This document shows positions 23,951 through 62,938 of a DNA stretch of 64,000 nt, one piece after another (position 1 is the stretch's first letter; every line of letters begins with the position of its first letter). The position numbers and the translations under genes are program-made. The notes beneath the pieces are model-generated. The model was not told the origin of the DNA. It searched no databases and worked only from the letters and a program-made list of their open reading frames with translations. The stretch is from Shigella phage Sf25. The stretch lies in sequence record MF327009. One strand, 5' to 3'.

Positions 23951-23955
23951 TAAAA

Positions 23956-25430: not shown

Positions 25431-25434
25431 AAAT

Positions 25435-29330: not shown

Positions 29331-31757
29331 TTAGGCCGCAAGGGCCTTCATAGTTTTAGCGATTTGAGAAACTTCATCATCACTTAAAGAGTTGCGATAA
29401 CCGATGAAGTCGGAAACAATACGGAATTTCTTGGTAAACTCAGCAACCATTTTATCACTGTTTTTTGAAGCATTATTTGATAATACATCAAAAAGATTAG
29501 TTACTGTCCAGATGTCATGACCGATGGTACCTTTTCCACCGTTGAAATATACGCCCCGCAATGAACTAACTATATTAGCGAGTCGTGTATATTCTTCAGA
29601 AACTTCATCTGTACTGAAGTACTTCATCATAAAATCTAGTTCAGGATACTTGATAATTTTATCAATATATCGTTGAGCTGAACTTGAATAACCTACGTAC
29701 TTATCATAATCTACATCATCAAAAGCATCTACATATAAATCACGCAGAGTTTCAAAAATACATTGGCACTGACCGAGTTCTTTTACCTTTTTCTGCAAAA
29801 GCGGACGAATAACATAAAATTCATTAATGCCAATAAGATTAGCCATACGAATCAAAATATTCATAGATGGATGACAAAGAGATGTAGTACCATCCATAGA
29901 GAAAATATCAGAACGATGCATATACGCTACATAACCAGTAATTTCATCTGCTTCTGATGTGAGCGTAAACAGTTCCTCTTTTTCCCATCGCCCATCTTTA
30001 ATTTCAAACTTAAATGCTGTAGCAGCTTTAGGACGAGGAGCTTTACTTTTAACTACCTTTGGAATATAGCTTTTAACTAAAGCTTCAATTTCTGACAAAT
30101 AATGAATGTTAACTTCATCACTTTCAAACATCGCCATAATATCAGGAAGTAAATCAATCTGCGATTCTACTTCTGGATTAATAAACAGAAGACGCTCATT
30201 GTGATGAATATTCAAAGTGTTATTAAATTCACTATCATCTAACGCATGTGCTAATCCACGAACAATATTAACACGATTTTTAATATTATCAATAACGATA
30301 TTAATTTTTGTTGTATTAATACCAAACAGACGATAACTTGATGCAACGGCTGAAGTTTCATGACTTTGCTTAATGCGTTTCAGTCGAGGGTCAAGATTTA
30401 CTTCATACACAACTCCTGCATTGCATAACTTACTGTCAGGTTCAAACATGCTCTGCATCTTTTTATATGACAGATTTTTAGTCGTGAATTTGACTGAATT
30501 ACTAATCATATAATCTCGAGCAGAATATCCCATCTTCATCAATTCACGATATGTGTGACGAGGAGATGTAGATTCTTTAAATCGTTTTACATCTTCATTG
30601 AATGCCTTCTCACTAAGCTCTTTAACACGCTCAATAATATTTTTACGAGTACGATCATCTAGTGAAAGAGCTTCGCGTGATGGAGCAATATCAAGTGAAC
30701 CCATTGGAAACTTAATGTAATTCACTTCATTGCGAATGCTTAGCCAGTTACGGTCTCTAATAACACCATCGATAGGATAAACAATACCGCCATAGATAGC
30801 ATATAATCCACCACGATCAGGCCAGTATCTTTCTGGATTTACACCATAATAATCATCAAAATCAGGAAAATAATCAATTTCAATAATATTTTTACGAGTA
30901 CGATCATCTAGTGAAAGAGCTTCGCGTGATGGAGCAATATCAAGTGAACCCATTGGAAACTTAATGTAATTCACTTCATTGCGAATGCTTAGCCAGTTAC
31001 GGTCTCTAATAACACCATCGATAGGATAAACAATACCGCCATAGATAGCATATAATCCACCACGATCAGGCCAGTATCTTTCTGGATTTACACCATAATA
31101 ATCATCAAAATCAGGAAAATAATCAATTTCGCGGTCAAGACCATTAATGATAGCCAAATCTTTGAACGGTCGCATGATATAAGAAACTTCATAAGCAAAG
31201 TTTCTAAAGTCTTTTTCTTCAACTGGAACTACGATTTCAATACCAGTTTTATCATCTGGACCCATTTCTTTTACGAATGTAGGTTTAATCTGTGGGCCAT
31301 CACCATCCATGTAAGCTACATAACCACGAATTTCACCTTTATGATACGAAGTAATACTAAACGTATCAGTATAACTAAACGGAGATTTAGAACCTAAACC
31401 AAATCCGCCAATAAAGTCATTAGATTCAGCCTTAGATGAACTGAAGTATGAATTATACAGCCCAGGAGAATTATCATCACCCTGAATATCAAAATCACTC
31501 ATACCCGGACCAAAATCTCGACAAACAAATCGTGGATCTAATCGTCCTGGAACTTGAATGATAAATTTTTCAGGATTTCCATTAAGTGCATGAGCATCAA
31601 TCATGTTAGTAATCAATTCACGGACTACTGCGCGAATCTTGTTTGTATACAAATCAGATGACAGAATTTTAAATACTTTAGGATTTGCTGCGATGCTAAA
31701 TGCTTTTGATTTAGAACCATTGCCAAGAATTGTTTCTTTTTCAGTGGTGATAATCAT
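29331..31757 (-). CDS. rIIA: rIIA protein; 808 aa including an 83-aa in-frame tandem duplication
   Basis: N-terminal GHKL-like ATPase sequence; peptide [25 protein letters not shown]...RTRKNII occurs twice. Confidence 0.9.
30632..31129. repeat. Exact direct tandem duplication, 2 x 249 bp, inside rIIA
   Basis: caataatatttttacgagtacgatcatctagtgaaagagc... begins at 30632 and 30881. Confidence 0.9.
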
Positions 31758-39216: not shown

Positions 39217-40536
39217 TCACACATAAAATACATCATAACGACCACGAGTTACACCAACATAAAGAAGCTGCTGAGCTAGTTCAGCGTCTGCATAATGAAT
39301 GCAAGGCGTATAAATGAAAGCACGATCTACAGACATACCCTGAGCTTTATGAAATGTTGATGCAGGAAGTGCTTTCACTTTACTAAACTGTGATTTAGCA
39401 TCCCAAAAATCGCTCCAAGGTGCTTTTCCGCCTTTGTTCCAATTTTTATAAGTTTCTGCTGTTTTACCTAAAAATAGGTTAAACTTATACAATTCTTCAT
39501 CAGATGAAATTATTTTAATCTTTTCACGATAATATTCATCATCACCATAAGTTTCTACTGTTAAATCCCAATGACGAATTAGATATTCTCCAGGAACACC
39601 ACGAGCTTTAACAAACGTTGATGTATACTCTGCTTCTATAATACGAACTAACTGTCCATTGTTAAAAATAATTTCTGATACCGGTTTTCCGTCAATTTTA
39701 TATGTTTTAATTAACGGTTCTTGCATTACAATAATTTCACCAACAATAAAATCTTTATCAGTTTCAAAAATCTTTTTACGAATAATGCTATTTAACTTGT
39801 CAACGGATTTATTCGTAAATGCCATTACGCGATTTTCAAACAAATCATCTAGTGATTTAACGATTGAAAAATAATTTACCATAAAATCACGTAAAGCGGT
39901 ATCACCTGTAAATCCGCGTACTCCATGACCATCAATGATTTTATCATAAATCCATTTGCCATTACGAACATCAGTAGCTACATCAATAATAGGAGCATTA
40001 CTACGTTTAACTTCAGTAAGTTCACATTGATAAAAATCTTTATGCGTAAAGAATGGACTGATATAAGCAGTATTTTCTCCTGGATCAACAGGCCTAATTT
40101 GCTTATTATCGCCTATTCCAATTATAGTACACCACGGTGGGATAGTTGAAAGCAAAATTTTGAAGAGCTTTCTATCATACATTGATACTTCGTCACAGAT
40201 TAAAACTCGACATTTAGCTAAATCTGGTACTTCTTTTTGTTCAAAAAGAACGTTTTCTTCATACGTAACTGGGTTAATTTTAAGAATACTGTGAATAGTA
40301 CTCGCTTCTTTCCCTGACAGTTTTGAAAGAATCTTTTTAGCTGCATGAGTAGGAGCTGCTAAAATAATACCAGTTTCGCCTGTAGATATTAAAGCTTCAA
40401 TGATGAATTTTGTAAGAGTAGTCTTACCAGTACCAGCAGGTCCATTAATAGTTACATGATGTTTCTTTTCTTTAATAGCCCTCATAACGATGTTAAAGGC
40501 ATTTTTCTGGCCTTCTGTCAAATCATCAAATGTCAT
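39217..40536 (-). CDS. dda: DNA helicase Dda (SF1B)
   Basis: 439 aa; Walker A GPAGTGKTT. Confidence 0.92.
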   Translation of the reverse strand: MTFDDLTEGQKNAFNIVMRAIKEKKHHVTINGPAGTGKTTLTKFIIEALISTGETGIILAAPTHAAKKILSKLSGKEASTIHSILKINPVTYEENVLFEQKEVPDLAKCRVLICDEVSMYDRKLFKILLSTIPPWCTIIGIGDNKQIRPVDPGENTAYISPFFTHKDFYQCELTEVKRSNAPIIDVATDVRNGKWIYDKIIDGHGVRGFTGDTALRDFMVNYFSIVKSLDDLFENRVMAFTNKSVDKLNSIIRKKIFETDKDFIVGEIIVMQEPLIKTYKIDGKPVSEIIFNNGQLVRIIEAEYTSTFVKARGVPGEYLIRHWDLTVETYGDDEYYREKIKIISSDEELYKFNLFLGKTAETYKNWNKGGKAPWSDFWDAKSQFSKVKALPASTFHKAQGMSVDRAFIYTPCIHYADAELAQQLLYVGVTRGRYDVFYV

Positions 40537-42809: not shown

Positions 42810-42839
42810 ATCATATCATCGTTAGAAAGGAAAGTAAAC
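42810..42839 (-). promoter_or_regulatory. Putative early promoter for modB (GTTTAC-N18-TATGAT); part of it is re-created in the adjacent duplication
   Basis: Reverse complement GTTTACTTTCCTTTCTAACGATGATATGAT, then GGAGG RBS. Confidence 0.5.
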
Positions 42840-43228
42840 AACTTTTTGAATTATTTTGCCCAGGGAGCCCAAGGCGGAGGGTCAAGATGGTATGAAGCTA
42901 GTTCTTCTAGAAGAGCATCTGGGGCTTCAATTCCATAATTCTGTAATACTATACGGTACTCTTTCTTATAATCACTAGAATCATTCTGGTTATTCGTAGA
43001 ATGATTATCTTCTAACATTCATATCATCGTTAGAAAGGAAAGTAAACAACTTTTTGAATTATTTTGCCCAGGGAGCCCAAGGCGGAGGGTCAAGATGGTA
43101 TGAAGCTAGTTCTTCTAGAAGAGCATCTGGGGCTTCAATTCCATAATTCTGTAATACTATACGGTACTCTTTCTTATAATCACTAGAATCATTCTGGTTA
43201 TTCGTAGAATGATTATCTTCTAACATCT
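42813..43228. repeat. Exact direct tandem duplication, 2 x 208 bp, covering a promoter/intergenic region and most of a small ORF
   Basis: atatcatcgttagaaaggaaagtaaacaactttttgaattattttgcccagggagccc... begins at 42813 and 43021. Confidence 0.9.
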
Positions 43229-45201: not shown

Positions 45202-45447
45202 TTATTCACCAGTTACTTTCCACAAATCTTCATTTGCAGCAATCCATTCAGTACGTTGATTTTCTTCATATACTGTAGAATATGCTGCTTTTTCTGAAGG
45301 GAATATCTGGTAATGAGCGCCAGAAATTTTATGAACGTCAGAATAAAGAGGGAAAGCTACAGAAATTTCCTTTCCTTCAATTTTCTTATTTCCATCTAAT
45401 TTTTGCTCAAATGTTTTAATATTAACATAACCGCGAGTACTAGCCAT
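45202..45447 (-). CDS. soc: Small outer capsid protein Soc
   Basis: 81 aa MASTRGYVNIKTFEQKLDGNKKIEGKEISVAFPLY... Confidence 0.9.
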   Translation of the reverse strand: MASTRGYVNIKTFEQKLDGNKKIEGKEISVAFPLYSDVHKISGAHYQIFPSEKAAYSTVYEENQRTEWIAANEDLWKVTGE

Positions 45448-45467
45448 GTAATTCTCCTTTTATTTAA

Positions 45468-45475
45468 ATTACATG
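45468..45475 (-). promoter_or_regulatory. Late promoter TATAAATA for soc
   Basis: Minus-strand TATAAATA about 20 nt upstream of the soc ATG. Confidence 0.6.
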
Positions 45476-45530
45476 ATTATTTATAATAAATTCTCGCGGC
45501 TTTTAAGTCGTCGTTTATTTAAATGAGCTA

Positions 45531-46293
45531 TTAATAGCCTCGATCTTGACGAGCGAAGTTTTCAGCATTTTTCAGATAATAAAGTTTAAAGATTTCCTCA
45601 GCTGACATTCCAAGAGCAATGAATTTATTCATGAAAAAGTGAAATTGGTCAATCAGTTCAAATTTAATTTCAAGCTGATCTTCAGGAGATAAGTCTTGAA
45701 TTTTCTTGGATTGCATTTCAGAATAACGTTTCTTCCAAGGTTTCCATACAGCAGAAGCTTCTTTTTCACCATTACTCATACCACCAAGAGAAGTATATAG
45801 CTCGCGAGTTTCATCTGCGATATAATCGTCTTGGTTTCGCAACCAAGCAAGAACTTCTCCTGCAGTTTCAAGTGAATCAGGATGACGATTTGTTTCTGGT
45901 TTATCATTAGCCAAACGAATCTGTAAATGCCGCTGCATGTCAAATTTTCTTGGATTGCATTTCAGAATAACGTTTCTTCCAAGGTTTCCATACAGCAGAA
46001 GCTTCTTTTTCACCATTACTCATACCACCAAGAGAAGTATATAGCTCGCGAGTTTCATCTGCGATATAATCGTCTTGGTTTCGCAACCAAGCAAGAACTT
46101 CTCCTGCAGTTTCAAGTGAATCAGGATGACGATTTGTTTCTGGTTTATCATTAGCCAAACGAATCTGTAAATGCCGCTGCATGTCAAGCATAACCTGCAA
46201 TGGGTCAATACTGTGCATAATATACTCAGCATATGCACGATTTGCTTTATCAACACCTTCGATCAAATGAGCACATTCATTAAAGTGAGCCAT
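45531..46293 (-). pseudogene. 56: dCTPase/dUTPase gp56 (MazG-like) disrupted by a frameshifting 244-bp tandem duplication
   Basis: N-terminal frame MAHFNECAHLIEGVDK... (AAGGAAA RBS) terminates at the repeat junction near 45940; C-terminal part ...ALGMSAEEIFKLYYLKNAENFARQDRGY is in another frame. Confidence 0.6.
45700..46187. repeat. Exact direct tandem duplication, 2 x 244 bp (not a multiple of 3), inside gene 56
   Basis: attttcttggattgcatttcagaataacgtttcttcc... begins at 45700 and 45944. Confidence 0.9.
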
Positions 46294-46353
46294 TATTTTT
46301 CCTTTCAATTCATTAATAAGTTAAATAATTATATCATTTGAGTATGTAAGCAA

Positions 46354-47693
<1,340 letters not shown>

Positions 47694-47718
47694 TATATCA
47701 TCCTCAGCAATTTGTTTT

Positions 47719-47748
47719 ATAATACCATAACAAGCTGAGAAAGTAAAC
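47719..47748 (-). promoter_or_regulatory. Putative early promoter (GTTTAC-N18-TATTAT)
   Basis: Reverse complement TTGTTTACTTTCTCAGCTTGTTATGGTATTAT. Confidence 0.5.
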
Positions 47749-47786
47749 AAATTTATGATAAATATTAATTTAAAGGAGGACGACGC

Positions 47787-47987
47787 ATGGTACAAAAATT
47801 AATGGCACTTGTTAATGCCATCAAAGGTAATAAAAAACGTATAGCTTTTACTATTTCTGCTATGGTAGGAATTTTACTCTGGAACTTTATTTTATCACCT
47901 GTTGCAATTGCACATGGTATTAATATTCCAGTAGTTACTCTTGATACATTCGTAGATTTAGCATTTGCTTTAGTTGGGTTAATTTAA
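47787..47987 (+). CDS. Small hydrophobic membrane protein encoded on the plus strand
   Basis: 66 aa; strong RBS AAGGAGGA 7 nt upstream of the ATG; two predicted TM segments. Confidence 0.5.
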   Translation: MVQKLMALVNAIKGNKKRIAFTISAMVGILLWNFILSPVAIAHGINIPVVTLDTFVDLAFALVGLI

Positions 47988-49012
47988 ATCTTAGCATATT
48001 TAGATAACCTCATTTTAGCCATCAACCCCTGGGCAATATTATTTTTCATATATTCCATAATTTGTTCAGGGGTTGCACCTTCCTTTCTAATCATATCATT
48101 AACATCTTTTGATTTCCAGGGAGATTTATCCCAAAACATAACTCTTTCTCCTGCATCAACTAATTTAGTCATTCGTTTGATAGTGTCAGGGTGACGAGGT
48201 TCATTATCTAAAACCCACACTCGTCTATCTTTAAATGGAACAACTTCTAGGTCTAATTGACCACCCGTAATAGCTATACCATTTTCAATAAAAAGTGAAT
48301 CTATAGGTCCTTCTAGAACATATACATCACCATCTTTAACTCGTTCAACACCGTAAATTTTTGTTGCCTCAGGATAAGCTTTGATGGTGATATACTTTTG
48401 TGGAGCATCTTTCTTTAATGCACGACCTTGAAAAGACTCAGCTTTTCCGTTAGCATTATAAATTGGAATAACAAGACGAGGCTCAGAAATTTCCTTTTTG
48501 TATGTTCCCGGTGCTATGCTATTAACTAATTTAGGCCATTCGGTTGTAAACCAAAGATATTTCCATTTATCCTTTGGAATACAACGAGCTTTTACATATT
48601 TTATAATTGGATGGTCTTCCGCCAGTTTATCTAATCTAACGCATGACGGAAGAGATTTAATTATTTTCTTCTCAGGCTGTTTAGGAAGTTCTTTAGGTTT
48701 TTCTACTGGACGACTTTTACCTTTTTCTTTTCTTATTTCAAAGATATACTCACGATATAAATCAGGTTCAAACTCCTTTAAATATATTCCGATTGGTGCA
48801 TGATAGTTACAGTTATAACAATGAATATTTCCTTCATTATTATCACCATAATACCATCCACGGGCTTTATTTTGGTCGGTTTTTGAATCTCCACAAACAG
48901 GGCATCTAAACCGCAACTTAAAGGTTGAACTATTATTTACTTGTGTAAATTTAGGTAAATGAGCTAATGCACGGTATGCAAACTCATTATCAATCCAAGG
49001 TATTGATGACAT
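47984..49012 (-). CDS. 61: DNA primase gp61
   Basis: 342 aa; zinc-ribbon CPVCGDSK...CYNC and TOPRIM region. Confidence 0.92.
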   Translation of the reverse strand: MSSIPWIDNEFAYRALAHLPKFTQVNNSSTFKLRFRCPVCGDSKTDQNKARGWYYGDNNEGNIHCYNCNYHAPIGIYLKEFEPDLYREYIFEIRKEKGKSRPVEKPKELPKQPEKKIIKSLPSCVRLDKLAEDHPIIKYVKARCIPKDKWKYLWFTTEWPKLVNSIAPGTYKKEISEPRLVIPIYNANGKAESFQGRALKKDAPQKYITIKAYPEATKIYGVERVKDGDVYVLEGPIDSLFIENGIAITGGQLDLEVVPFKDRRVWVLDNEPRHPDTIKRMTKLVDAGERVMFWDKSPWKSKDVNDMIRKEGATPEQIMEYMKNNIAQGLMAKMRLSKYAKI

Positions 49013-49180
49013 TTTTACTCTTCTTTTTCTTTAGATTCCTCTTTCTTCTTTTTAGGAATCTGTTCAGGACCTTTATTTACTACAGCACCTGACGTTGTTC
49101 CAGTAGAGATATTTTCAGGATTACCACCTGAATCTCCAGCGACCATATCTTCTTTAATAAATTCTTTATATGTTTTCATA

Positions 49181-49807
49181 TTAACCTCTATTCATAAAAG
49201 CATTAAAAATTTGGTCATCAATAGAAACATTTACTTTAGACTGTTTTTCTGATGGTAATTCATATCCACATATCACAATTTTATGATCAATATCAAAATA
49301 CACAGAAGCAATATGATTAATGATATTTTCAGTGAAGTCTAAATCGACATCAATATCTTTTTGACCAAAGCCCAAAGGATAAATAATGCGAGTAATTCGA
49401 TTATCTTTAACAAAGATTCCACCGACATACTCTGTACTGCGTTTAAAGTCTACACGCCGACGAAATGAAAAATATTCAGGCTCTTTATGAGCTCGGCTCA
49501 TAGGACACAACGAATAACTAGAATAAGAGATGTCAAATCCTACGCCTTCAATATGAGCCAAAGTGTCATGATTAAACCAATTATAATCGTACGCCAAATC
49601 CATTAGATTATAATATGTAAAAGGCACCGGATTAACATCATTAGTCACAAGCATGTAATTAGCAACTGCTATAATTTCATTGTTTTTAACGAATACAAAC
49701 CGTGATTGATGCGAATGACCTGGACCCGCGTTTTCACGATTAATGATATAACACTGGGCACCTTTATATTTGTATGTATCTTTGCACTTGTGCATTTGAT
49801 AGAGCAT
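49181..49807 (-). CDS. Hypothetical protein
   Basis: ORF track 208 aa. Confidence 0.5.
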   Translation of the reverse strand: MLYQMHKCKDTYKYKGAQCYIINRENAGPGHSHQSRFVFVKNNEIIAVANYMLVTNDVNPVPFTYYNLMDLAYDYNWFNHDTLAHIEGVGFDISYSSYSLCPMSRAHKEPEYFSFRRRVDFKRSTEYVGGIFVKDNRITRIIYPLGFGQKDIDVDLDFTENIINHIASVYFDIDHKIVICGYELPSEKQSKVNVSIDDQIFNAFMNRG

Positions 49808-50100
49808 TATTCACCTACCACTTCAGCGATGATATTTTTGTTATTAAAGTTTTTATCGCAATACAGAACATAATTATACTGCATTACACCACCAGACTTA
49901 AGCTGTTTTTGCACTTCAGCTTTCATTTCAGGACGATCGCGCTCAACAATATTCATAATATCCGCTTCAATTTGAGTTTCAACCTCAGTCTGATCAGCAG
50001 TCATAGACCATTCGCACAAATCTTTATCATAACCTGCCATAGCAGGCTGAGCAGCACAAGAAGCTAAAGCAAAAATTGTAGCAAAGATAAATTTTTTCAT
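49807..50100 (-). CDS. sp: Secreted/periplasmic protein, probable spackle-like superinfection exclusion factor
   Basis: 97 aa; signal peptide MKKFIFATIFALASCAAQPAMA; GAGGAG RBS. Confidence 0.55.
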   Translation of the reverse strand: MKKFIFATIFALASCAAQPAMAGYDKDLCEWSMTADQTEVETQIEADIMNIVERDRPEMKAEVQKQLKSGGVMQYNYVLYCDKNFNNKNIIAEVVGE

Positions 50101-50128
50101 GATAATCTCCTCAGTAGTTTATGTTTAT

Positions 50129-50158
50129 ATAGTATCTCAATTTCCAACAAAAGTAAAC
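50129..50158 (-). promoter_or_regulatory. Putative early promoter (GTTTAC-N18-TACTAT)
   Basis: Reverse complement GTTTACTTTTGTTGGAAATTGAGATACTAT. Confidence 0.5.
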
Positions 50159-50160
50159 AG

Positions 50161-50460
50161 TTATTTTAAAACTTCTGTGTAATCACATGTTACAAACTGT
50201 TTCTCTAGCTTGACGATTTTACGAAAGTATCTTTTACATTGACGAATCTGTCGCTTAGTAGGGCGCACAGCAAACTTAATAAATTCCACTCGACCAAATG
50301 GAGGGCTTTCTTCTGATGGAATATCTAACACCAATTCCCATGTATCTGCAATAAGTGCTTTGAATTGAGTATTTTTCCTAACGTTATACGGAGTAGGTTT
50401 AAATAAAACAATATGCATATTATCCTCGGCAATCCACTTCACATACTTTCTTGTCATCAA
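50161..50460 (-). CDS. Hypothetical basic protein
   Basis: ORF track 99 aa. Confidence 0.5.
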   Translation of the reverse strand: MMTRKYVKWIAEDNMHIVLFKPTPYNVRKNTQFKALIADTWELVLDIPSEESPPFGRVEFIKFAVRPTKRQIRQCKRYFRKIVKLEKQFVTCDYTEVLK

Positions 50461-50602
50461 TGAAAGCTTTAACTAATGCTTTATTAACTTCAGCATACTG
50501 AGTAGTAGCCCATTGAACGTCATCTTTCATCATTGTGGTTTCTTTAGTAAACATGCTTTCATTCTTAAACCACCCCATAAAAACTACCTTTACCAATTCC
50601 AT
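50420..50602 (-). CDS. Hypothetical protein
   Basis: ORF track 60 aa; GAGGAG RBS. Confidence 0.45.
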   Translation of the reverse strand: MELVKVVFMGWFKNESMFTKETTMMKDDVQWATTQYAEVNKALVKAFIDDKKVCEVDCRG

Positions 50603-50631
50603 AACAATCTCCTCATTTAACCAACAAGATT

Positions 50632-50661
50632 ACTATACCATAGTCTTGTCAGCTTGTAAAC
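50632..50661 (-). promoter_or_regulatory. Putative early promoter (GTTTAC-N18-TATAGT) overlapping the gene 41 stop
   Basis: Reverse complement GTTTACAAGCTGACAAGACTATGGTATAGT. Confidence 0.45.
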
Positions 50662-52088
50662 TAAAATTTTAATTCATTTGCCAAAGCATCTAACTGAGCT
50701 CGAGTAGATTCATTTCTTTGATAGCGATTCTGCTCAGCCTGAATCTGTTGTGAACCTGCTACTTCGTTCACTTCAGTTGGAGTAGAATCTTGTTCAATTT
50801 CTACCCATTTCTGATTTCCTTTTTGAACACCCATCAAAAACTTATTCCATTTATTCTTATCGCCATATCGTGATTTGATTTGCTTAATGAGTTGTTGTTC
50901 AGCAGCTGCTAGCTCCTCGGTTTCAATGACCGCAAGCATAAAATCAGCTGTTGCTGGAAGACCAGCAGATTCTGCAATATCGCTCATGTTAACATCGGAA
51001 GAGTCCCAAGCTTGTTTACCAACCTGCGCTGCGGTCCAAAGAACAGTTTCGGTTTCAACAGCAAGAGCACGCAATTCCTCTGCAATAGCTTTAACAGTTG
51101 TGTAACTATTTTCTGAATAAACTCTAATGCGGCAAGATTTACAAATACCTAGATAGTCGACAATAATGATTGTTGGAACAAAATTCTTCTTGAGCTTCAA
51201 TTCATTCAAGAGAGACCTGAATGTATTAGCGTCTGCTCCACCAGTAGGATATTGCTTAACGATTAAACGACCGAGAGTAGATTTCTCACGCCATTTTTCC
51301 ATTTTTCCTTTATATTCGGCGTAAGAAATATGTCCATCATCAATATCGTCAAGAGAAACATCGAGCATGTTAGCATCAATACGTTTAGCACAGACTTCTT
51401 CTGCCATTTCCATGGAGATATAAAGAACGTTATGACCAAGCTGCAAATAATCTGCTGCTAATGAGCAAAGTCCTAATGATTTACCAACGTTAACGCCAGC
51501 CATTAAAACGTTCAGTGTTCCTGTTTCAGCTCCGCCTTTTGTAATTTTATTCAAAATACGAAGTTTAAATGGAACCTTACGAGCTTTATTCATATAAGAT
51601 AGCCAGCGTGCTTCGTAGTCATCCATCCAATCATGACCAACGTAGCTATCAAATGAAATTGATAATGCTTGGCGCATGATGTCAGGAATAGCACCTACAT
51701 CTGGCATTTTCTTATTTCGTTTTTCCGGAGGAAGCTCAGCATTAGTTTGAATTTCGATTATTTTAGACGTAGCATTAAACATCGCCCTTTGCTGAACATA
51801 TTTTTCTGTTTCTTTTACTAACCAACTATGGTCTTCCGGAGAATCAGCTAGTTTTGAAATAAGTGTTTTTACACCAGAATATTCTGTTTCAGTAAATGAA
51901 CTATTTTCTAATGCAACATTTAACGCATTAATAGATGGAACGCTATGATACTCATTAACATGAGATTTAATTAATTTGAATGTATTTTTAGCTGGACCAC
52001 TTTCAAAATATTCTGAATCCATATATGGCCAAACTTTTGAAAAATAAGCTTGATCAAATATGAGATGAGAAAGAATAATTTCTACCAC
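50661..52088 (-). CDS. 41: Replicative DNA helicase gp41 (DnaB-like)
   Basis: 475 aa; Walker A GVNVGKS. Confidence 0.92.
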   Translation of the reverse strand: MVEIILSHLIFDQAYFSKVWPYMDSEYFESGPAKNTFKLIKSHVNEYHSVPSINALNVALENSSFTETEYSGVKTLISKLADSPEDHSWLVKETEKYVQQRAMFNATSKIIEIQTNAELPPEKRNKKMPDVGAIPDIMRQALSISFDSYVGHDWMDDYEARWLSYMNKARKVPFKLRILNKITKGGAETGTLNVLMAGVNVGKSLGLCSLAADYLQLGHNVLYISMEMAEEVCAKRIDANMLDVSLDDIDDGHISYAEYKGKMEKWREKSTLGRLIVKQYPTGGADANTFRSLLNELKLKKNFVPTIIIVDYLGICKSCRIRVYSENSYTTVKAIAEELRALAVETETVLWTAAQVGKQAWDSSDVNMSDIAESAGLPATADFMLAVIETEELAAAEQQLIKQIKSRYGDKNKWNKFLMGVQKGNQKWVEIEQDSTPTEVNEVAGSQQIQAEQNRYQRNESTRAQLDALANELKF

Positions 52089-52097
52089 ACTTACTCC

Positions 52098-52436
52098 TTA
52101 AAAGAATTTAAATTTTTTCTTTGACCTTTTATTAAATGCATCTTGCAGTTGCATTGTAATACATTTTTCTACATGAGGAGCTAACTCAGCTTTTCTTTCT
52201 TGGTCAAGAACAGCAAAGTCCATTACAACCTTTCCATCAACCCAATCCAGTTTAGTTACATACACTATATGTGTAGAACCATCTTCTAGTTTAATGACAA
52301 TCTCCTGGATAACATTTTCCATAGCGGATTTAATTATCTTAAGAGACTCATTAAAAAGACGTTCTTTTCTTTCTTTTTCCCCCTCCGAAGAGGGGGATTC
52401 ATCGATAATTTCTAAATCTAAATCATCTTTACTCAT
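52098..52436 (-). CDS. 40: Hypothetical acidic protein at the gene 40 position
   Basis: Probable start MSKDDLDLEII with GGAAGAA RBS; position between 41 and uvsX. Confidence 0.5.
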   Translation of the reverse strand: MSKDDLDLEIIDESPSSEGEKERKERLFNESLKIIKSAMENVIQEIVIKLEDGSTHIVYVTKLDWVDGKVVMDFAVLDQERKAELAPHVEKCITMQLQDAFNKRSKKKFKFF

Positions 52437-53610
52437 TAAATTCTTCCATATCACTTAACTGCTCGAGGTCAGTTTCTAAATCAGCTGCTGATTTACTTTT
52501 ACTTTCTGGAGATTTAAATTTTTCAACCTTTGAGTTAATCAATTCATCAACTTCAGCTTCAACAATTTCATTACTATCAATAGCACCTAACTGATAAGCA
52601 CGTTTAATAGCATCTCGGAATGGCTGATGCTTAAATAAAGGACCCCAGAATGTAGTGCAGTTGGTATCTTTTGCACGCCAAGATTTTTCTTCGCGAATCA
52701 TCTCACCGGTTTCTTCGTCAAGAAATTCACGAGCATACCAGCCATTTTTAGGTTTTACCACAAATCCTAATTCAAGAGCCATATCTAACAATCCAGAATA
52801 AGGATCGATGCCACCGTCAAATTTAACATCAATAAAGAATTTACTTTTTTCTTTAACGGTACGAGATTTTTCTACATTTAGAACAAATTGATACCCCTGA
52901 AGATCAGAACCATCTTTAATCTGGCGCTTACCGATAATGAATACAGTATCAGCCGAATACATTACGCCTGTACCACCTGTCATCACGGTTTTACTAAACA
53001 TTTCAATTGTTTCAATTGTATGGTTAACCGCAACACATGGAATATTTTTAATGCTAAAGTAAGGAGTAACAATACGGAATAATGACTTCAGTGATTTAGC
53101 ACGAGTCATATCTGCCACAGATTTTTCATTCAAGGCATCTTCAGTTTCTTTCTTAGAAGCCATATTACCGATTGAGTCGATGAATACAATAACTTTTTCA
53201 CCGCGCTCAATAGCTTCAAGCTGATTCACCATATCAATTTTTAGCTGTTCAACTGACTGAATCGGCGTATGAATTACTCGTTCTGGGTCAACCCCCATGG
53301 ATCGCAAATAAGCTGGAGTAATACCAAATTCGCTATCATAGAATAGACAAACCGCGTCAGGATATTTGTTCAAATATGCCGCAACCATAGTCAAAGACAT
53401 ATTTGATTTAAAGTGTTTAGAAGGCCCTGCGAAAATAGTTAAACCAGACTGCATACCGCCATCAATCGCACCAGAAATAGCAATATTAAGCATTGGAATT
53501 TTTGTACGAATTACATCCTTTTCATTAAAGAATTTAGATGTAGTCAGTTCAGCAGTCATTTTAGAAGTGGAAGCTTTAATCAAACGGGATTTTAAATCTG
53601 CAATAGACAT
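52429..53610 (-). CDS. uvsX: Recombinase UvsX (RecA-like)
   Basis: 393 aa; RecA-fold sequence with Walker A GPSKHFKS. Confidence 0.92.
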   Translation of the reverse strand: MSIADLKSRLIKASTSKMTAELTTSKFFNEKDVIRTKIPMLNIAISGAIDGGMQSGLTIFAGPSKHFKSNMSLTMVAAYLNKYPDAVCLFYDSEFGITPAYLRSMGVDPERVIHTPIQSVEQLKIDMVNQLEAIERGEKVIVFIDSIGNMASKKETEDALNEKSVADMTRAKSLKSLFRIVTPYFSIKNIPCVAVNHTIETIEMFSKTVMTGGTGVMYSADTVFIIGKRQIKDGSDLQGYQFVLNVEKSRTVKEKSKFFIDVKFDGGIDPYSGLLDMALELGFVVKPKNGWYAREFLDEETGEMIREEKSWRAKDTNCTTFWGPLFKHQPFRDAIKRAYQLGAIDSNEIVEAEVDELINSKVEKFKSPESKSKSAADLETDLEQLSDMEEFNE

Positions 53611-53687
53611 TCATTTTTTCCATAGGCATCATTATATTTTCCTCACTGGTTAAAGATAGAGTAATTATAACACAATAAATTTAGGCA

Positions 53688-54536
53688 TTAATCAACTGCT
53701 ATTGGATGAATAGCATTAAACTTATGAAATGCTTCTGATTTTTCTTTACGTGAAACGCACATGCGAAGAACCTTTAATGGTTCGTCTTCTTCACCCAACG
53801 ATTTTCGTTTTTCAATATTAGAAGTTTTCCAACGAGCTTGCTCTGGAAACTCTCTATTGATTTGCTCAAGCGCTCTATTATGTTTAGAATTACTACGAAT
53901 TGAACTGCACCCGCCAGGAGCTTGTGCTTTTCCAGATACAACCAGATATTTGAACAAGGCCAAATGCGGATAACCTTGATTAATTAAATTGAGAAATGCA
54001 TACATATCTTCGCACAAATCAATTTTTCCATACCCAATTTGTTCTGTCGTAAGTTTTCCAAGGTCATACCATGTATTCGTGAATCCATATGAATTTTCAC
54101 GATAATTACCCCAAGATGAAGTAATTTTAAAAATTGGTAGGCGAGCATGACCATGATAATACCCGCAATCCATGGCATCCTCAACGTATTGAATCAATTC
54201 ATAGAACTGTTCACGGGTTAATTGATTGACTTTATCTACACAACGACGGTCATCTCTTTTTCGCATTGAACTCATACGAATAGTAGTATCATCGTCAATC
54301 ATCCAGATTCGTTGACCTGCATACATATCAGTAATTGCTTTACGAGTACCGGCAATTCCGTTTACATCATCAGGAATAGTTATAATTTTAGCTCTAGACC
54401 CATAAGCGTCATAATAAGCTTTTTCTTCATGTTCACGCACTACAATATGGGGTTCATAATCAGTCGGAAACATATCAAGGGCAGAAACTGCCCCGACACG
54501 CTGATAACTTGGAATTACGAATTGAATCATTTCCAC
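53688..54536 (-). CDS. Putative GT-A-fold glycosyltransferase at the beta-gt locus (T2/T6-type beta-alpha-glucosyltransferase-like)
   Basis: 282 aa; DxD-type motif IDDDTT; position between uvsX and gene 42. Confidence 0.55.
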   Translation of the reverse strand: MEMIQFVIPSYQRVGAVSALDMFPTDYEPHIVVREHEEKAYYDAYGSRAKIITIPDDVNGIAGTRKAITDMYAGQRIWMIDDDTTIRMSSMRKRDDRRCVDKVNQLTREQFYELIQYVEDAMDCGYYHGHARLPIFKITSSWGNYRENSYGFTNTWYDLGKLTTEQIGYGKIDLCEDMYAFLNLINQGYPHLALFKYLVVSGKAQAPGGCSSIRSNSKHNRALEQINREFPEQARWKTSNIEKRKSLGEEDEPLKVLRMCVSRKEKSEAFHKFNAIHPIAVD

Positions 54537-55381
54537 TCACCGTTATAATCTTTTTTCACAATATGAGTTTCGCCAGTATTCCACCAATGATCAACCAAGT
54601 AAAAATGACGAGAATATACATGAAGACTTCCAACATTCCATATAATAGAACCTGCTTTATACTGACGAGTTGAATCGCCGGCATTCAAATCAGATACTAA
54701 TTTATCTAATACGTATTTTTGCCATGCATAATCATTACGGAATCCGAAGACCACGTCATTTGAGCGCATGCTTACTACTGCATTGACTTTCTTATCACGA
54801 ATCAGGTACTGTACTGTATTAGTACACATGAAATCTGACATACCATCTTTATTGTAGTCAAATTGCATGGATGGACGAGTCATGCTTACTACTGCATTGA
54901 CTTTCTTATCACGAATCAGGTACTGTACTGTATTAGTACACATGAAATCTGACATACCATCTTTATTGTAGTCAAATTGCATGGATGGACGAGTATAAAT
55001 CATGATACCACGTCGAGAATCAGGATTTTGACCAAGTTCAGCTAAACACATATCATACTGGGCATAGTTATCTTCTGACCAAATAGCCCAACCATAATTC
55101 GAGTTAATTTCGCCTTTAGAAGATGCTACCTGCTGCCAAATCTTTGGTGTTTCGCCTGGAATATCTTTGACAAACAGACTTTGAGACTTGTACCATTCAA
55201 GTTCACGCTGAATGTATTCATCATTAAGAGCGCCAAAAATAAAGGGTTCATCTGCTACAAATGATGCGCCAATAATTTCAATAGTTTTAACACCGGTTTT
55301 ATCAACTACGAAATCTTTTTCTTTTAATGCAAGCCCCAAATGAAGACGGATTTCTTCAACTGTCATAAAGTCACTAATCAT
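54527..55381 (-). CDS. 42: dCMP hydroxymethylase gp42; 284 aa including a 38-aa in-frame tandem duplication
   Basis: ThyA-like fold sequence; peptide TRPSMQFDYNKDGMSDFMCTNTVQYLIRDKKVNAVVSM occurs twice. Confidence 0.9.
   Translation of the reverse strand: MISDFMTVEEIRLHLGLALKEKDFVVDKTGVKTIEIIGASFVADEPFIFGALNDEYIQRELEWYKSQSLFVKDIPGETPKIWQQVASSKGEINSNYGWAIWSEDNYAQYDMCLAELGQNPDSRRGIMIYTRPSMQFDYNKDGMSDFMCTNTVQYLIRDKKVNAVVSMTRPSMQFDYNKDGMSDFMCTNTVQYLIRDKKVNAVVSMRSNDVVFGFRNDYAWQKYVLDKLVSDLNAGDSTRQYKAGSIIWNVGSLHVYSRHFYLVDHWWNTGETHIVKKDYNGEWK
54767..54994. repeat. Exact direct tandem duplication, 2 x 114 bp, inside gene 42
   Basis: catgcttactactgcattgactttcttatcacgaatcagg... begins at 54767 and 54881. 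Confidence 0.9.
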
Positions 55382-56601: not shown

Positions 56602-59445
56602 TCAGCCAAACAGGAAGTCTAACGAAGCTTTTTCTTCATAGTCCATACCAGCCGATTCACACATGCCTGCAAGCGGTTTAACAAACGATTTTTGGAACAA
56701 AGTTGAGTAGTCAATCCAAGACAGTACGTCAGAACGAATTTCTTTTGGAAGTTCTGTACCCGACGGCCAAGCAATGCATTTGTCACCAAATGGATTTCCT
56801 TCACGCAATGGAAGAACCATTACTTTATTTCCATCCAAAATTGGAGCTACACCTAAACCGCTAACAGCTCGACGATAAGTTAGCACACCACGAATATGGA
56901 ACGGACATTTAAATCCTGGCCAACCTTTATCATCATATTTCGCTATATCGTTCGCAGTTTTTACTTCAGCAATAACTTTATAGTCAAGTTGACGATATTC
57001 TTTCTCGAAGTTCTTGTAATATTCTTGGACAGACTCTTCACCTTCCTGAAGAATACGACGAATACTTTCTTCGAGAGCTTCTTGGACCGCTTTAGGCGTT
57101 GAACTCTGCTGAGTTTCCATACCCATGATTTTTAGATGCGGTTCAGCAAATCGCTTATCTTCCATATCATATACGTTCAGAGCATAACGCTTTTTCGCTT
57201 TCCAAAATCCGCCAACGCCCTTTGAACCAAGTGGAGGGCAAGAAATAGCTTCACGGTCCATATGCATCAGATGCTCGCGGTTATTCATATAATCACATAA
57301 CTCACGATATGCAACATCAATCATAGGTTCCATCTTTTTCTTACCGAACTGATTCATGAATTCAACTAAATCGTTCTGCTCTTTGAATCGGTCAAGACCA
57401 ACTTTTTCAATAACTTTATCTACACAAACATATACCGAATCAGTATCACCTGCTGCAATGAAATCTTCGCCATTAGTTCCGCATACTTTATTCAGATATT
57501 CATTAATTTTACGAGCAATCCACTGAATACCAACTTGGCCGAAAATTGTGATAGCAGTAGCATTTCGCAAATCATAGTAACGGAAATGAATATTACCAAG
57601 AGCACCATAAAGACTGTTAATAAGAATTTTACGGTTCAGCTGATTTGTGTTAGCAAGTGTAGCTGCTTTTTCACACTCTTCGATCAAACTATTAAGAACA
57701 GATTCGGTGTAATTCGATAGTTCATTTAAGAAATCATCACTGAACTTAACATATCGTTCAACTTCTGGTTTAGTTGAGCAAGACCCTGCGCCTTTCATAA
57801 TAATCTTTTTAATAGCTTCGGCATTCATTTCTTCAGCGAACATTTTCTTTTTCCAATCTTTACGCTGGAAAAATACTTTAGCGATTTCCTTTGGAATGAT
57901 ACCTTCTTGATGCTTATCATACATCCATCCATTCGGAGAACAAGAATATTCATCACTCGGTTTAGGAGCTGTTCCTGCGATATATTCATGAATTGGATGA
58001 ACTTTAAACTGACCACGAATAGTCTCAGGACTAATGTTAACCTGACGAATAATGCTCGGATACAGAGACGTCAAGTCAAAACTCATAATATATCGACGAG
58101 CAATTGGTTTAGGTTCAAACACAAATGCACCCGGAAAACTCTGTTTAACGTGCGAACCTTGTTGAGGAATAACCTTATGTTCACCTTTCAATGAGTTAAA
58201 AATAATAGCATCCCAAGTTTTAATAGGACTCATTACACCGGAAAAAGGCATTTTAGCGTAATAAGACATACTTAAAACTAGATCGATAAACCCGCGAATT
58301 TTATCAATTGCTTGAACTGATTCTACGTCAATGATGTTATAACTAATGTATCGTTGATGATTAGTCTCACGAAGTTTATTAATAGGACCGTCGTATGGTA
58401 ATTTACCTTTTTTGGTTTCATGTTGAGCAACTGATTCCAAAGAGAATGACGGCAAATTAGTAAAAGCGAATTTCTTGTACAAATCTAAATAATCAAGAAT
58501 AGATACGCCATCAATAGAATAAATTTCTTTGCTGCCGTACATATTTTGAATTAGTTTGGATTTTACCCGACCGATTGGAGAGAAACGTTTCATACTGCGT
58601 TCGCCTAGAATCATTTTAACACGATTCATGATATATGGAACGTCAAACCCCTCAATATTCCAACCGGTAAAAATAGCAGGTCGTTTCTGTTCCCAGAGAT
58701 TGATATATTCCATGAGCATATCACGCTCATTATCGAATGGCATATAAATTACTCGGTCAAGAATTTCTTGAGGAACTTCATCACCACCTTCACAGTCAAG
58801 CTTAGCAGCTAACTTTGCATCCCATTTTGATACTGAACCGTACATTGAATTCAAAAGGTCGAAAACATAAAAACGATCGTCAATTGAATCGTAATGAGTG
58901 ATAGCATCAATTTCATATTCAGCTTTCATTGGGTCAGGAAATTTATCACCAGTAACCTCAATGTCACAGTTAGCTACACGAACACCGTACATTGAATTCA
59001 AAAGGTCGAAAACATAAAAACGATCGTCAATTGAATCGTAATGAGTGATAGCATCAATTTCATATTCAGCTTTCATTGGGTCAGGAAATTTATCACCAGT
59101 AACCTCAATGTCACAGTTAGCTACACGAACAAATTTTCGGTCATAAACAATTTCTGAACCATATGTATCACTGATATAAGCGAGTTTAAAATCGTTCATA
59201 CCGAGAGCTTCGAGACCGATGTCTTCCATTCGCTTCATCCAATCTCGAGCATCTTTCATTGATGGAAATTTTTGAGGAGCGCAGTTTTTACCATAGATGT
59301 CTTTGTACTTTGACTCTTCCTTACAATGCCTAAACATAGTTGGAAGATATTCTACTTCACGAGTACGTTCCTTTCCATTTTCATCAATATAACGTTCAAC
59401 AATATTATTTCCGACTGTTTCAATAGAGATATAAAATTCTTTCAT
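56602..59445 (-). CDS. 43: DNA polymerase gp43 (family B); 947 aa including a 49-aa in-frame tandem duplication in the N-terminal/exonuclease region
   Basis: Pol B motifs (DxxSLYPS-like FDLTSLYPSII, YGDTDS-like GDTDSVY); peptide VRVANCDIEVTGDKFPDPMKAEYEIDAITHYDSIDDRFYVFDLLNSMYG occurs twice. Confidence 0.92.
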   Translation of the reverse strand: MKEFYISIETVGNNIVERYIDENGKERTREVEYLPTMFRHCKEESKYKDIYGKNCAPQKFPSMKDARDWMKRMEDIGLEALGMNDFKLAYISDTYGSEIVYDRKFVRVANCDIEVTGDKFPDPMKAEYEIDAITHYDSIDDRFYVFDLLNSMYGVRVANCDIEVTGDKFPDPMKAEYEIDAITHYDSIDDRFYVFDLLNSMYGSVSKWDAKLAAKLDCEGGDEVPQEILDRVIYMPFDNERDMLMEYINLWEQKRPAIFTGWNIEGFDVPYIMNRVKMILGERSMKRFSPIGRVKSKLIQNMYGSKEIYSIDGVSILDYLDLYKKFAFTNLPSFSLESVAQHETKKGKLPYDGPINKLRETNHQRYISYNIIDVESVQAIDKIRGFIDLVLSMSYYAKMPFSGVMSPIKTWDAIIFNSLKGEHKVIPQQGSHVKQSFPGAFVFEPKPIARRYIMSFDLTSLYPSIIRQVNISPETIRGQFKVHPIHEYIAGTAPKPSDEYSCSPNGWMYDKHQEGIIPKEIAKVFFQRKDWKKKMFAEEMNAEAIKKIIMKGAGSCSTKPEVERYVKFSDDFLNELSNYTESVLNSLIEECEKAATLANTNQLNRKILINSLYGALGNIHFRYYDLRNATAITIFGQVGIQWIARKINEYLNKVCGTNGEDFIAAGDTDSVYVCVDKVIEKVGLDRFKEQNDLVEFMNQFGKKKMEPMIDVAYRELCDYMNNREHLMHMDREAISCPPLGSKGVGGFWKAKKRYALNVYDMEDKRFAEPHLKIMGMETQQSSTPKAVQEALEESIRRILQEGEESVQEYYKNFEKEYRQLDYKVIAEVKTANDIAKYDDKGWPGFKCPFHIRGVLTYRRAVSGLGVAPILDGNKVMVLPLREGNPFGDKCIAWPSGTELPKEIRSDVLSWIDYSTLFQKSFVKPLAGMCESAGMDYEEKASLDFLFG
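58837..59130. repeat. Exact direct tandem duplication, 2 x 147 bp, inside gene 43
   Basis: accgtacattgaattcaaaaggtcgaaaacataaaaacgatcg... begins at 58837 and 58984. Confidence 0.9.
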
Positions 59446-60116: not shown

Positions 60117-60541
60117 TTACCATTCCAATGCTAGTTTTTTGAGTTGTTTCTGTTCTTTTACGTTCTTAGTCACTTCTTTCAAAAAATCATATCTTCGACC
60201 AGTTTTGCCCATTTACCATATCTTTTACCACGAGGAACTGCAGCCATCAGATAATTAAAATGAGCTTCATCACTTAAGCCTGATCCAATTAAATTCATAG
60301 CATATACAGCTGGCATGCACTCTGGAAATTGTGATAATGCATTTTCAACCATGAATTTTGAATAATCTTTTTGAGCAATAGAGCATTTAGTTTTATTATT
60401 AATAGCTCCAATTATTTCAAAAAATTCATTTTCAGCTTTTTCTTTAAAAGAATCAGCAGCAGATTGGACAGCTGTCCAATCTTTTGAATACCAAGCAACT
60501 TGATGCTCGTTTAATTGAATATCATCTTCAAATAAGCTCAT
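60117..60541 (-). pseudogene. 62: Clamp loader small subunit gp62, disrupted by an internal frameshifting lesion
   Basis: N-terminal frame [22 protein letters not shown]... stops at 60179 (...KLVEDMIF*); downstream, out of frame, [23 protein letters not shown] ends at the regA start. Confidence 0.55.
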
Positions 60542-60542
60542 A

Positions 60543-61502
60543 TCACTTCCACTGCATTTCACATGCTAATTGAATGAAAAGATAAGCTAAATGTAATTCA
60601 GTGTTAGCTGCAATACCATGATACTGATTATTTTCACCAACAATTTCGTACATACGAATAATACTTTGCGGAGTTACACGTGAATAGATTTCTTCGGCAA
60701 GTTTACCCACGAACCACGAATAATCAGCTGCATATTTTGGTGCTAAAGCTCTGAGTTGTTTAACATCTTTATTTTTGAGAGACTCAAGAACATCATCAAT
60801 AGCACCACGATCGTTAGTAACCAGTGATAAAATACCAGCATCCAAAACACCTTTAGATGAATAACTATCGAGCTCACCAATAGTTTTACGAAAATCAGGA
60901 AAATTCTTTTTAACCAAAGCTGCTACAACTTTCATATCAGCTATAGCAATTCCTTCATGCTTGCAGATTTCAGTCAATCGACGAATCATCTGCTTCATCA
61001 TTTCAATTTTATCTTCATCGGTCGGTTGACCGAATGTAATAACTCGGCAGCGTGACTGGAGAGGTTTAATAATACCATCAATATTGTTAGCAGTAATAAT
61101 AATACTACAGTTTGAACTATAAGCTTCCATAAAGGAACGAAGATGTCGCTGAGACTCTGCTAACCCTGAGCGGTCAAATTCATCAATAACGATTACTTTT
61201 TGACGACCATCAAATGAAGCGGCGCTGGCAAAATTAGTCAAAGGACCACGAACGAAATCAATTTTACAATCTGACCCATTCACAAACATCATATCAGCAT
61301 TTACATCATGACACAATGCTTTCGCTACAGTTGTTTTACCTGTTCCTGGAGAAGGAGAATGAAGAATAATATGTGGAATTTTACCTTTACTTGTAATAGA
61401 TTTAAAGGTTTCTTTATCAAAGGCGGGAAGAATACATTCATCGATAGTAGATGGACGATATTTCTGTTCAAGAATGTGTTCTTTTTCATTTACGGTAATC
61501 AT
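60543..61502 (-). CDS. 44: Clamp loader large subunit gp44 (AAA+)
   Basis: Probable start MITVNEKEH (319 aa); Walker [11 protein letters not shown]. Confidence 0.92.
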
Positions 61503-61553
61503 AATTTCCTCATACAAGTTTTAGTGTAAATTATAAAGGGCCGAAGCCCTCTA

Positions 61554-62240
61554 TTAAAAATCGTGGGTAGAATCAGCTTCAAGAGCTACTACATAATTCG
61601 CATGTTCACCTTCAAATTTAGCAGCGCCTTGTTTACCTTTTGCCCAAAGCAGAAGTTTATAATTTCCTGGTTGCATTTTCATATTTGCCATATTGATAAT
61701 GAAATTAAATGTATTTTCACCATCATAATCACCAAGAGTCAAAGAATATTTAACACGGGTAAGAGCAGAATCTTCTACTTTATTAAAACCGTTAATTACG
61801 ATTTTACCTTCTTTTACCGTGATAGCAATTGTATCAATTTGCAGACCACGAGATACACGCAACAGCTGTTGAAGGTCTTCAGCTTTAATTTCAGTAACAA
61901 CAGATGCTACCGGGAATGGAATTGGTTTATTAGGAGCAACTACTGTACTCGGATCGGCTGCTGGCCAAAAAATTGTTGAACGAGCATCAGCAATTTTAAT
62001 ATTTCCATCTTCTGACTGGGAAATTTCTGCATCATCATTAACTAGAGACAGAATACCGAGAAAACCGTTCAAATCGTAAATTGCTACATCAAAATCAATA
62101 ACGTCAGAAATATTTGCTTCCGCATAAGTTGTACCATTAACTGCGCGAGTCATAATAAATTGACCGGATTTAAGCATAATACCGGAGTTAATAGTAGCGA
62201 AATTTTTAAGCAGAGCAGTAGTATCTTTAGACAGTTTCAT
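61554..62240 (-). CDS. 45: Sliding clamp gp45
   Basis: 228 aa MKLSKDTTALLKNFATINSGIMLKSGQFIMTRAVNG... Confidence 0.92.
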   Translation of the reverse strand: MKLSKDTTALLKNFATINSGIMLKSGQFIMTRAVNGTTYAEANISDVIDFDVAIYDLNGFLGILSLVNDDAEISQSEDGNIKIADARSTIFWPAADPSTVVAPNKPIPFPVASVVTEIKAEDLQQLLRVSRGLQIDTIAITVKEGKIVINGFNKVEDSALTRVKYSLTLGDYDGENTFNFIINMANMKMQPGNYKLLLWAKGKQGAAKFEGEHANYVVALEADSTHDF

Positions 62241-62295
62241 GTAATTTCCTTCAATTCAAATGAGATTTAATTTTATAACTAATTTAATAAAGCAA

Positions 62296-62685
62296 TTAAC
62301 GATTAAAATCAGCCGCAATTGTTTCAGCAACAATTTGAGCAGCAACAATTAGGCGTTCATCTGCATTACCGCAATATTCATCTTCTAAACGTTCACCGCA
62401 TGAAGTCATAATAAATTTAGCACCGGCGTTTAGGGATTCTGCAGTATGTTTGCGCATTAGTTCAATCCATTTATTACTTACTTCACGATCGATAGCTTCA
62501 TAATACGCATGACGAGCAGGTGCAGATTTAATTTTGTTCTGAATAACTTCCATTGCGTTATCAGAAAGAGACAAAACCCATGCGCGACGAATTTTATTTT
62601 GGTTTTGCGGATTTGAGTCAGAACGCACGTGTTTTGGCTGAATATCTTTTACATCAACAGTATAATTCACAGTAATTTTAGTCAT
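62296..62685 (-). CDS. rpbA: RNA polymerase-binding protein RpbA
   Basis: 129 aa; position between 45 and 46. Confidence 0.7.
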
Positions 62686-62694
62686 AATACACCT

Positions 62695-62883
62695 TTAGTC
62701 ATAATAATCAGTAACAGTCCAAGCTTCATTTCTATTGGACATTATTTTTGTATATTCTGCTTTAAATGCATTCCTAAGCATAGATTCAGTAACTATATGC
62801 TCTTCATTAGAAAAATTATTTCTCAGAATATATCGTTTTATTTCAGGAAAAGTTAATAGATGCTGTCCAGTTGAATATTCCAT
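62695..62883 (-). CDS. Hypothetical protein
   Basis: ORF track 62 aa. Confidence 0.45.
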   Translation of the reverse strand: MEYSTGQHLLTFPEIKRYILRNNFSNEEHIVTESMLRNAFKAEYTKIMSNRNEAWTVTDYYD

Positions 62884-62938
62884 GTTTTTCCTCCATAGAG
62901 ATTATACTCTAATAAATTAAAGCATAATCTCTTATAAA

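Follow-up and report, generated by a model that had tools for sequence, protein, structure and literature searches.

A frame-breaking 244-bp tandem duplication in the dCTPase gene 56 of a T4-like phage sequence and its probable origin in badly joined pieces

The dCTPase gene of a T4-like phage is interrupted, in the sequence analysed here, by a tandem duplication that destroys its reading frame, which raises the question of whether this lesion is a mutation carried by a phage or a product of the way in which the sequence was put together. The window, that is, the whole 64,000-nucleotide stretch of Shigella phage Sf25 (sequence record MF327009) that was analysed, carries the gene on the minus strand at 45531-46293. 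A sequence-only reading of this DNA had placed a 244-bp duplication at 45700-46187 and had concluded that the lesion should be lethal unless it is artefactual.

TRF reports a 244-nt unit at 45699-46187, in 2.0 copies and with 100% matches (score 978), and direct string comparison finds the two copies to be identical, so that the repeat itself stands and only the proposed start, 45700, is one base off. Chance cannot account for a perfect repeat of 244 nt in a sequence of 64 kb. The gene-proximal copy (45943-46186, minus strand) comprises nucleotides 108-351 of the gene, which correspond to codons 37-117 plus 1 nt, and to its right lies a block that is near-identical to Shigella phage Sf24. The gene-distal copy (45699-45942, minus strand) is continued on its left by a block diverged from Sf24. 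One extra matching base, the 'a' at 46187, extends beyond the copies and leaves a 1 nt ambiguity in the position of the joint.

The frameshift is inherent in the duplication because 244 = 3x81+1, and the earlier statement that the length of the unit is not divisible by three therefore holds. The gene starts with the ATG at 46293-46291, in a frame that begins MAHFNECAHLIEGVDK, and is read for 117 codons up to the novel joint ATT/TGA (45940-45945, minus strand; break between 45942 and 45943, with 1 nt of microhomology), where a stop codon formed by the opening bases of the second copy comes directly after Ile117; this TGA, at 45942-45940, consists of the first three bases past the joint. The result is a truncated N-terminal dCTPase ORF (45940-46293, minus strand) of 117 aa, MAHFNEC...SKKI, plus the stop. 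The remainder of the protein, D37...Y172, can be read only in the +1 frame, in which the ATG of Met38 (45938-45936) starts 1 nt past the junction TGA and opens a C-terminal part of 135 aa (45531-45938, minus strand) that ends at the natural stop (45533-45531); the mechanically called ORF at 45531-46016 places 25 out-of-frame residues ahead of D37. Both the halt of the N-terminal frame at the joint and the shift of the C-terminal part into another frame had been anticipated by the sequence-only reading. As given, gene 56 has no single ORF of ~171 aa, and it becomes whole only once one copy is taken out, which yields an uninterrupted ORF of 519 nt and 172 aa, equal in length to the Sf24 gene.

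Aligned to a reference gene 56, this collapsed 172-aa ORF is a full-length homologue of T4 gp56 (70% identity over residues 1-172, E 6e-88), and it is 99-100% identical, where aligned, to gp157 of Sf24. The gene-56 protein also matches PHROG 173, 'nucleoside triphosphate pyrophosphohydrolase' (2.7e-44). The Pfam family dUTPase_2 (PF08761) scores 21.6 bits with the full protein, against a cut-off of 22.9, with only the last 28 residues aligned, and 24.3 bits with the C-terminal fragment, where the match is confined to the same last 28 residues; a PDB sequence search with the protein returns no relative. Gene 56 is located between soc (45202-45447) and dam (46354-47133), and the order soc - 56 - dam - 61 is common to Sf24, T4 and the dam-bearing related contigs, some contigs being without dam. 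Judging by homology and gene order, the underlying gene is an ordinary, well-conserved member of the gp56 family of all-alpha NTP pyrophosphohydrolases and encodes a predicted dCTPase/dUTPase. The earlier designation as the dCTPase gene 56 thus holds in the sense of an orthologue in a T4-like phage, and not in the sense of T4's own gene.

The surroundings of the gene offer some further observations. The gap between soc and gene 56 (45448-45530) is empty in the window; T4 has the homing endonuclease segF at this place and Sf24 has two small ORFs. At 8275-8311, the window is without the SegG homing endonuclease that Sf24 has between genes 32 and 59. According to the T4 annotation (NC_000866.4, position 16763), the replication origin oriA falls within gene 56, at its 5' end; in the window, the duplicated codons 37-117 are downstream of the equivalent position and do not include it.

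The duplicated arrangement has no counterpart among relatives. An 80-mer across the gene-56 junction has no match in 50,697 phage records (INPHARED) when the E-value is limited so strictly that the match must be contiguous; as a control at the same threshold, a natural 80-mer of the same gene, taken where the repeat ends on the right, matches 141 records. Both halves of this junction sequence find matches in 167 phage records, and in all 30 of those listed they occur as two pieces spanning ~245 bp, the single-copy layout. Searches of IMG/VR, JGI metagenome contigs and GTDB genomes with a joint-spanning 36-mer give no match, and neither of the truncated products, N-terminal or C-terminal, is on record by exact sequence look-up. 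An intact gene 56 of 171/172 aa is present in 10 contigs that encode an identical Dam and 9 that encode an identical Dda, as well as in Sf24 and T4, and the DNA of these identical-Dam/Dda contigs aligns to the window as a single-copy gene 56.

The sequence-only reading had treated the gene-56 lesion as a lone event. This view does not survive a survey of the whole 64 kb, which contains six more perfect duplications and ten deletions, and this recurrence along the window is what settles the gene-56 question. The six further tandem duplications, detected by window-wide TRF, are all perfect two-copy repeats with units of 114-249 bp; self-BLAST agrees on the tandem duplications of the window, and the microhomology at their joints is 0-3 nt. 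The affected genes, named through alignment to Sf24, are all on the minus strand. A 249-bp unit in nrdA (1651-2151) introduces an in-frame insertion of 83 codons, and a 178-bp unit in nrdA.1 (2916-3272) causes a frameshift. Another 249-bp unit, in rIIA (30631-31130), leaves an ORF of 808 aa vs 725 aa, and a 208-bp unit covers modA.2 together with the adjacent spacer (42811-43226). In two replication genes the units are smaller: 114 bp in gene 42, encoding dCMP hydroxymethylase (54767-54994), and 147 bp in gene 43, encoding the DNA polymerase (58837-59131), with insertions of 38 and 49 codons, respectively.

The ten deletions, found by alignment, are clean losses of 70-173 bp relative to Sf24. 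At 8809/8810, 173 bp are missing, with the loss of residues 1-52 of gp59, including the start codon, and of the last residues of gp33. Gene 37 (plus strand) has two joints, the first with 173 bp missing (18146/18147) and the second with 70 bp missing (18607/18608); the segment between them (18146-18608) is 88% identical to Sf24 and is read in a different frame, and gp37 is broken into ORFs of 683, 187 and 377 aa. Further along the plus strand, the absence of ~105 bp at ~20000 shifts the frame of gp38 (ORFs of 65 + 163 aa), and the absence of 72 bp at 20470/20471 removes the end of gene 38 together with residues 1-9 of holin t and its start codon. The remaining five are on the minus strand: 134 bp at 25630/25631, affecting the N-terminus of ac; 166 bp at 25680/25681; 130 bp at 26625/26626, in ndd.2a/ndd.4; 156 bp of modA at 41990/41991, a stretch that is present in all 17 of the fetched relatives that span the site; and 139 bp of the clamp loader gene 62 at 60190/60191, where the frameshift leaves ORFs of 127 + 31 aa. 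At the eight deletion joints that were measured, each flank agrees with Sf24 at 42-50 of its 50 bases, and the microhomology is 0-4 nt, which is about the level expected by chance. The 50,697 phage records contain neither any of the seven duplication joints nor any of the six deletion joints that were tested. Events of this kind are rare in the controls, with one duplication or deletion in 69 kb of Sf24 and none in six related 21-kb loci. A search of the alignment gaps relative to Sf24 for small inversions revealed none, the gaps being ordinary variable modules.

The window is also a mosaic. Its nearest genome, Sf24, is ~97% identical to it over 24 kb, and the window consists of alternating blocks with ~99.9% and ~95-97% identity to Sf24. 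The blocks that are nearly free of differences span 8810-18146, 18608-~19500, 20471-25630, ~46110-54000 and 60191-64000, and the remaining blocks differ from Sf24 by 3-5%. Seven or eight of the joints sit exactly at jumps in the density of Sf24 mismatches. From left to right, the mismatches go from 17/565 to 0/600 across 8809, from 1/600 to 51/600 across 18146, from 51/600 to 1/600 across 18607, from 34/596 to 1/600 across 20470 and from 2/600 to 25/555 across 25630. At gene 56, there are 19 mismatches in 600 positions on the left, 2 in the 244 of the unit and 0 in 600 on the right, and the nearest left-side differences are 6 and 15 nt outside the edge of the unit. The two mismatches within the unit show that the 'Sf24-like' source is not Sf24 itself.

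More generally, the seven duplicated units hold 13 differences from Sf24, as opposed to 47.7±15 in random placements of same-sized stretches within the diverged blocks (P≈0.0015). The diverged component of the mosaic has no close known relative: for a 10.7-kb diverged block, no sequence of the phage collection exceeds ~95% identity, and a window-private 40-mer matches one IMG/VR contig that is only ~95% identical. Because the diverged blocks lack a relative above ~95% in this collection, one source of the mosaic would appear to be a novel lineage with no known record. The block boundaries are near 8809, 18146, 18607, 20470, 25630, 46110, ~54000 and 60190, and most of them fall on lesions; the boundary near 54000 is lesion-free.

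Outside these lesions, the window is of excellent quality at the level of single bases. Some 75 other genes are intact, mostly with 90-100% amino-acid identity, and there are no point frameshifts. The dda gene (39217-40536, minus strand) encodes a protein identical at 439/439 residues to that of 10 public contigs, from which it differs at 69-80 DNA positions, nearly all of them synonymous third positions, and the relatives with an identical Dda differ among themselves at 10-63 synonymous sites. This pattern points to very strong purifying selection. The possibility that the window had been synonymously recoded, considered given the combination of 100% identity in Dda protein with ~94% in DNA, was rejected, as the relatives show a like pattern. 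Because ~75 other genes are intact and Dda shows strong selection, the damage is neither evolutionary decay nor the outcome of noisy sequencing.

The window also contains one duplication of a different character. The frd.2 gene (ORF 6441-6887, minus strand) harbors a 66-bp imperfect tandem repeat at 6469-6615 that is in frame and adds 22 codons, with the ORF remaining open over 148 aa. The two copies differ by 3 mismatches, and a 15-nt imperfect direct repeat, already present in Sf24, flanks the duplication, the joint being a hybrid of the two repeats. The duplication has no match in other phage records, and exact look-ups of two lineage-specific proteins of the window, the 148-aa frd.2 product and that of a 166-aa ORF, return nothing. 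The frd.2 repeat looks like a genuine natural duplication.

Taken together, these observations favor, with a probability of about 0.9, the reading that the 244-bp duplication is an artefact of assembly joins, chimeric or mis-joined, and not a mutation of a viable phage, although we infer this status and do not observe it directly. Both halves of the verdict of the sequence-only reading, lethal unless artefactual, hold up, and the 7 duplications and 10 deletions favor the artefact branch. The window would be a patchwork drawn from at least two T4-like sources, one ~99.9% Sf24-like and the other a novel lineage at ~95-97%. Where neighboring pieces overlap and are pasted end to end, the stretch that they share would appear twice, as a perfect tandem duplication, and where a small gap separates neighboring pieces, a clean deletion would result. 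In gene 56, the diverged source would contribute a piece ending at 45942, and an Sf24-like piece would begin at 45943, the two having 244 identical bases in common, and piece ends would generally favor stretches common to both strains. If pieces of two phages were stitched in this way, joints at source switches and duplicated units in conserved stretches are to be expected.

Three features typical of join artefacts are indeed present. The defects recur regardless of essentiality or frame, with at least 10 important genes broken; the copies are identical and the joint is absent from the independent genomes searched; and seven or eight joints, including that of gene 56, fall at changes of source. 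Some of the evidence does not fit the simplest versions of this scheme. The overlaps vary between 114 and 249 bp and do not follow a fixed k, which argues against a plain de Bruijn join, and some duplications (nrdA, rIIA) lie inside diverged blocks with no obvious switch relative to Sf24. The procedure might have been, for example, the ordering of mixed-strain contigs along a reference followed by concatenation, reference patching or construction in silico; some software or manual step behind the pasting is implied, and the exact pipeline is a guess. In simulations, misassemblies that are difficult to recognise are reported to arise when closely related phages are mixed (PMC4893331).

The lesions of the window cannot coexist in a living phage because gp43, gp42, gp56, gp62, gp59/gp33, gp37, gp38, holin t, NrdA and rIIA are all disrupted. 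Together, the 17 lesions would leave a phage unable to replicate its DNA, assemble its tail fibres or lyse its host.

Three other explanations deserve consideration. Duplications and deletions of about 50-250 bp might have been placed at random in a genome that is real in other respects, whether simulated in silico or caused by a non-specific bug in software, with no joining of sources. Such a process would sit well with the confinement of all 17 events to 70-249 bp, with the perfect copies and chance-level junction microhomology, and with the similar totals of duplicated and deleted sequence (~1389 vs ~1318 bp); it is nonetheless improbable, as it leaves unexplained why seven or eight joints coincide to the base with switches between ~99.9% and ~96% identity to Sf24 and why the duplicated units are so poor in Sf24 differences. 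Less probable still is a real gene-56 duplication in a defective sub-population that was complemented in a mixed or high-multiplicity infection and caught by the consensus. Any such event would have to be very recent, given that the copies are 100% identical, and T4-type phages do make tandem duplications, of which the 66-bp frd.2 repeat is a natural-looking case within the window. However, the hallmarks of natural slippage or recombination are not found at gene 56, where the microhomology is 1 nt, in contrast to the 15-nt imperfect direct repeat that flanks the frd.2 duplication, and where the repeat is out of frame while denB is intact (162/162 aa). Moreover, the gene-56 joint is in no other genome of the collections searched, and the 16 other lesions in the 64 kb must either reside in the same genome or be given separate explanations. 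According to T4 genetics, a phage without gene 56 sustains stable DNA synthesis only if denB has been lost as well, and dC-phage must further lack alc to form plaques (PMC1635256). The window encodes an intact DenB with the same sequence as in Sf24, so that a genuine gene-56 null would be lethal.

The third explanation, which we consider hardly credible, is that the duplication is real and tolerated, the predicted dCTPase being rescued by re-initiation or by a +1 shift. In the former case, translation would stop at AUU-UGA and restart at the AUG 1 nt downstream, so that fragments 1-117 and 38-172 would assemble; in the latter case, a +1 shift at AUU UGA C would generate a 253-aa protein with residues 37-117 duplicated. 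The joint lends itself to such proposals, since the coding strand reads ATT TGA C ATG, with the in-frame Met38 one base past the stop. UGA-C is a weak stop context, and the site bears a superficial likeness to the CUU UGA C of prfB. The prfB-type +1 site consists of CUU UGA C with a Shine-Dalgarno-like element 3 nt upstream, whereas the window has AUU UGA C after CAAGAAA, so that only the UGA-C context fits; no Shine-Dalgarno-like element precedes the site, the sequence there being CAAGAAAAUU, and a slip from AUU to UUU re-pairs poorly. Nor does anything support activity of a split or internally duplicated gp56. The arrangement is found in no relative, and rescue of gene 56 leaves the other 16 lesions unexplained.

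Comparison with known systems points in the same direction as the preferred reading of badly joined pieces. Artefacts of contig joining, circularisation or patching share with the gene-56 repeat the two identical head-to-tail copies without a flanking direct repeat, the lack of a counterpart in relatives and the breakage of an ORF without regard to frame. They differ in that such artefacts are usually a single repeat of fixed k at contig ends, whereas the window has seven repeats of variable length (114-249 bp) and, beyond the usual artefact, ten small deletions and switches between two sources. A possible parallel is found in the record of Sf24 itself (MF327008.1, 92090-92619, by denB), which contains a perfect 265-bp two-copy tandem repeat annotated as the paralogues gp121/gp122. 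It is the only such event in the 69 kb of that record that were compared and involves small ORFs with no assigned function, and the window is single-copy there; the repeat could be an untrimmed assembly overlap in the record.

The natural-looking frd.2 duplication resembles that of gene 56 in being head-to-tail within a coding region, but it is in frame, keeps its ORF open, is bounded by direct repeats and has copies that differ at 3 positions, none of which applies to the gene-56 repeat. The genetic precedents are the T4 gene 56 nulls (amE51) and dC-substituted T4 (42-, 56-, denB-, alc-), and the window likewise has no intact gene 56 and carries a lesion in gene 42. Viable 56-minus phages need the loss of denB and alc (PMC1635256), whereas the window has an intact DenB, the same as that of Sf24, and unlike dC-phage it has broken gp43, gp62, gp59, gp37, gp38 and t. 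A dC-phage genotype (42-, 56-) was accordingly rejected as an account of the window, given the intact denB and the many unrelated essential genes that are broken.

If the lesion were real, it would describe a T4-like phage that lacks a normal dCTPase and yet has endonuclease IV, contradicting the classical genetics of hydroxymethylcytosine DNA; if rescue also operated, a single tandem duplication would have naturally split an essential nucleotide-pool enzyme, the product being a dCTPase in two pieces that overlap by 80 residues or an internally duplicated dCTPase. Under the preferred reading, that of badly joined pieces, the biological weight of the gene-56 duplication is small and its practical worth is that of a quality flag. 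As it stands, the 64-kb sequence is unfit for inferring gene content, for calling pseudogenes or for claims on structural variants. At least 17 joints in the window are open to doubt, and two related phages have probably been combined in it as a chimera.
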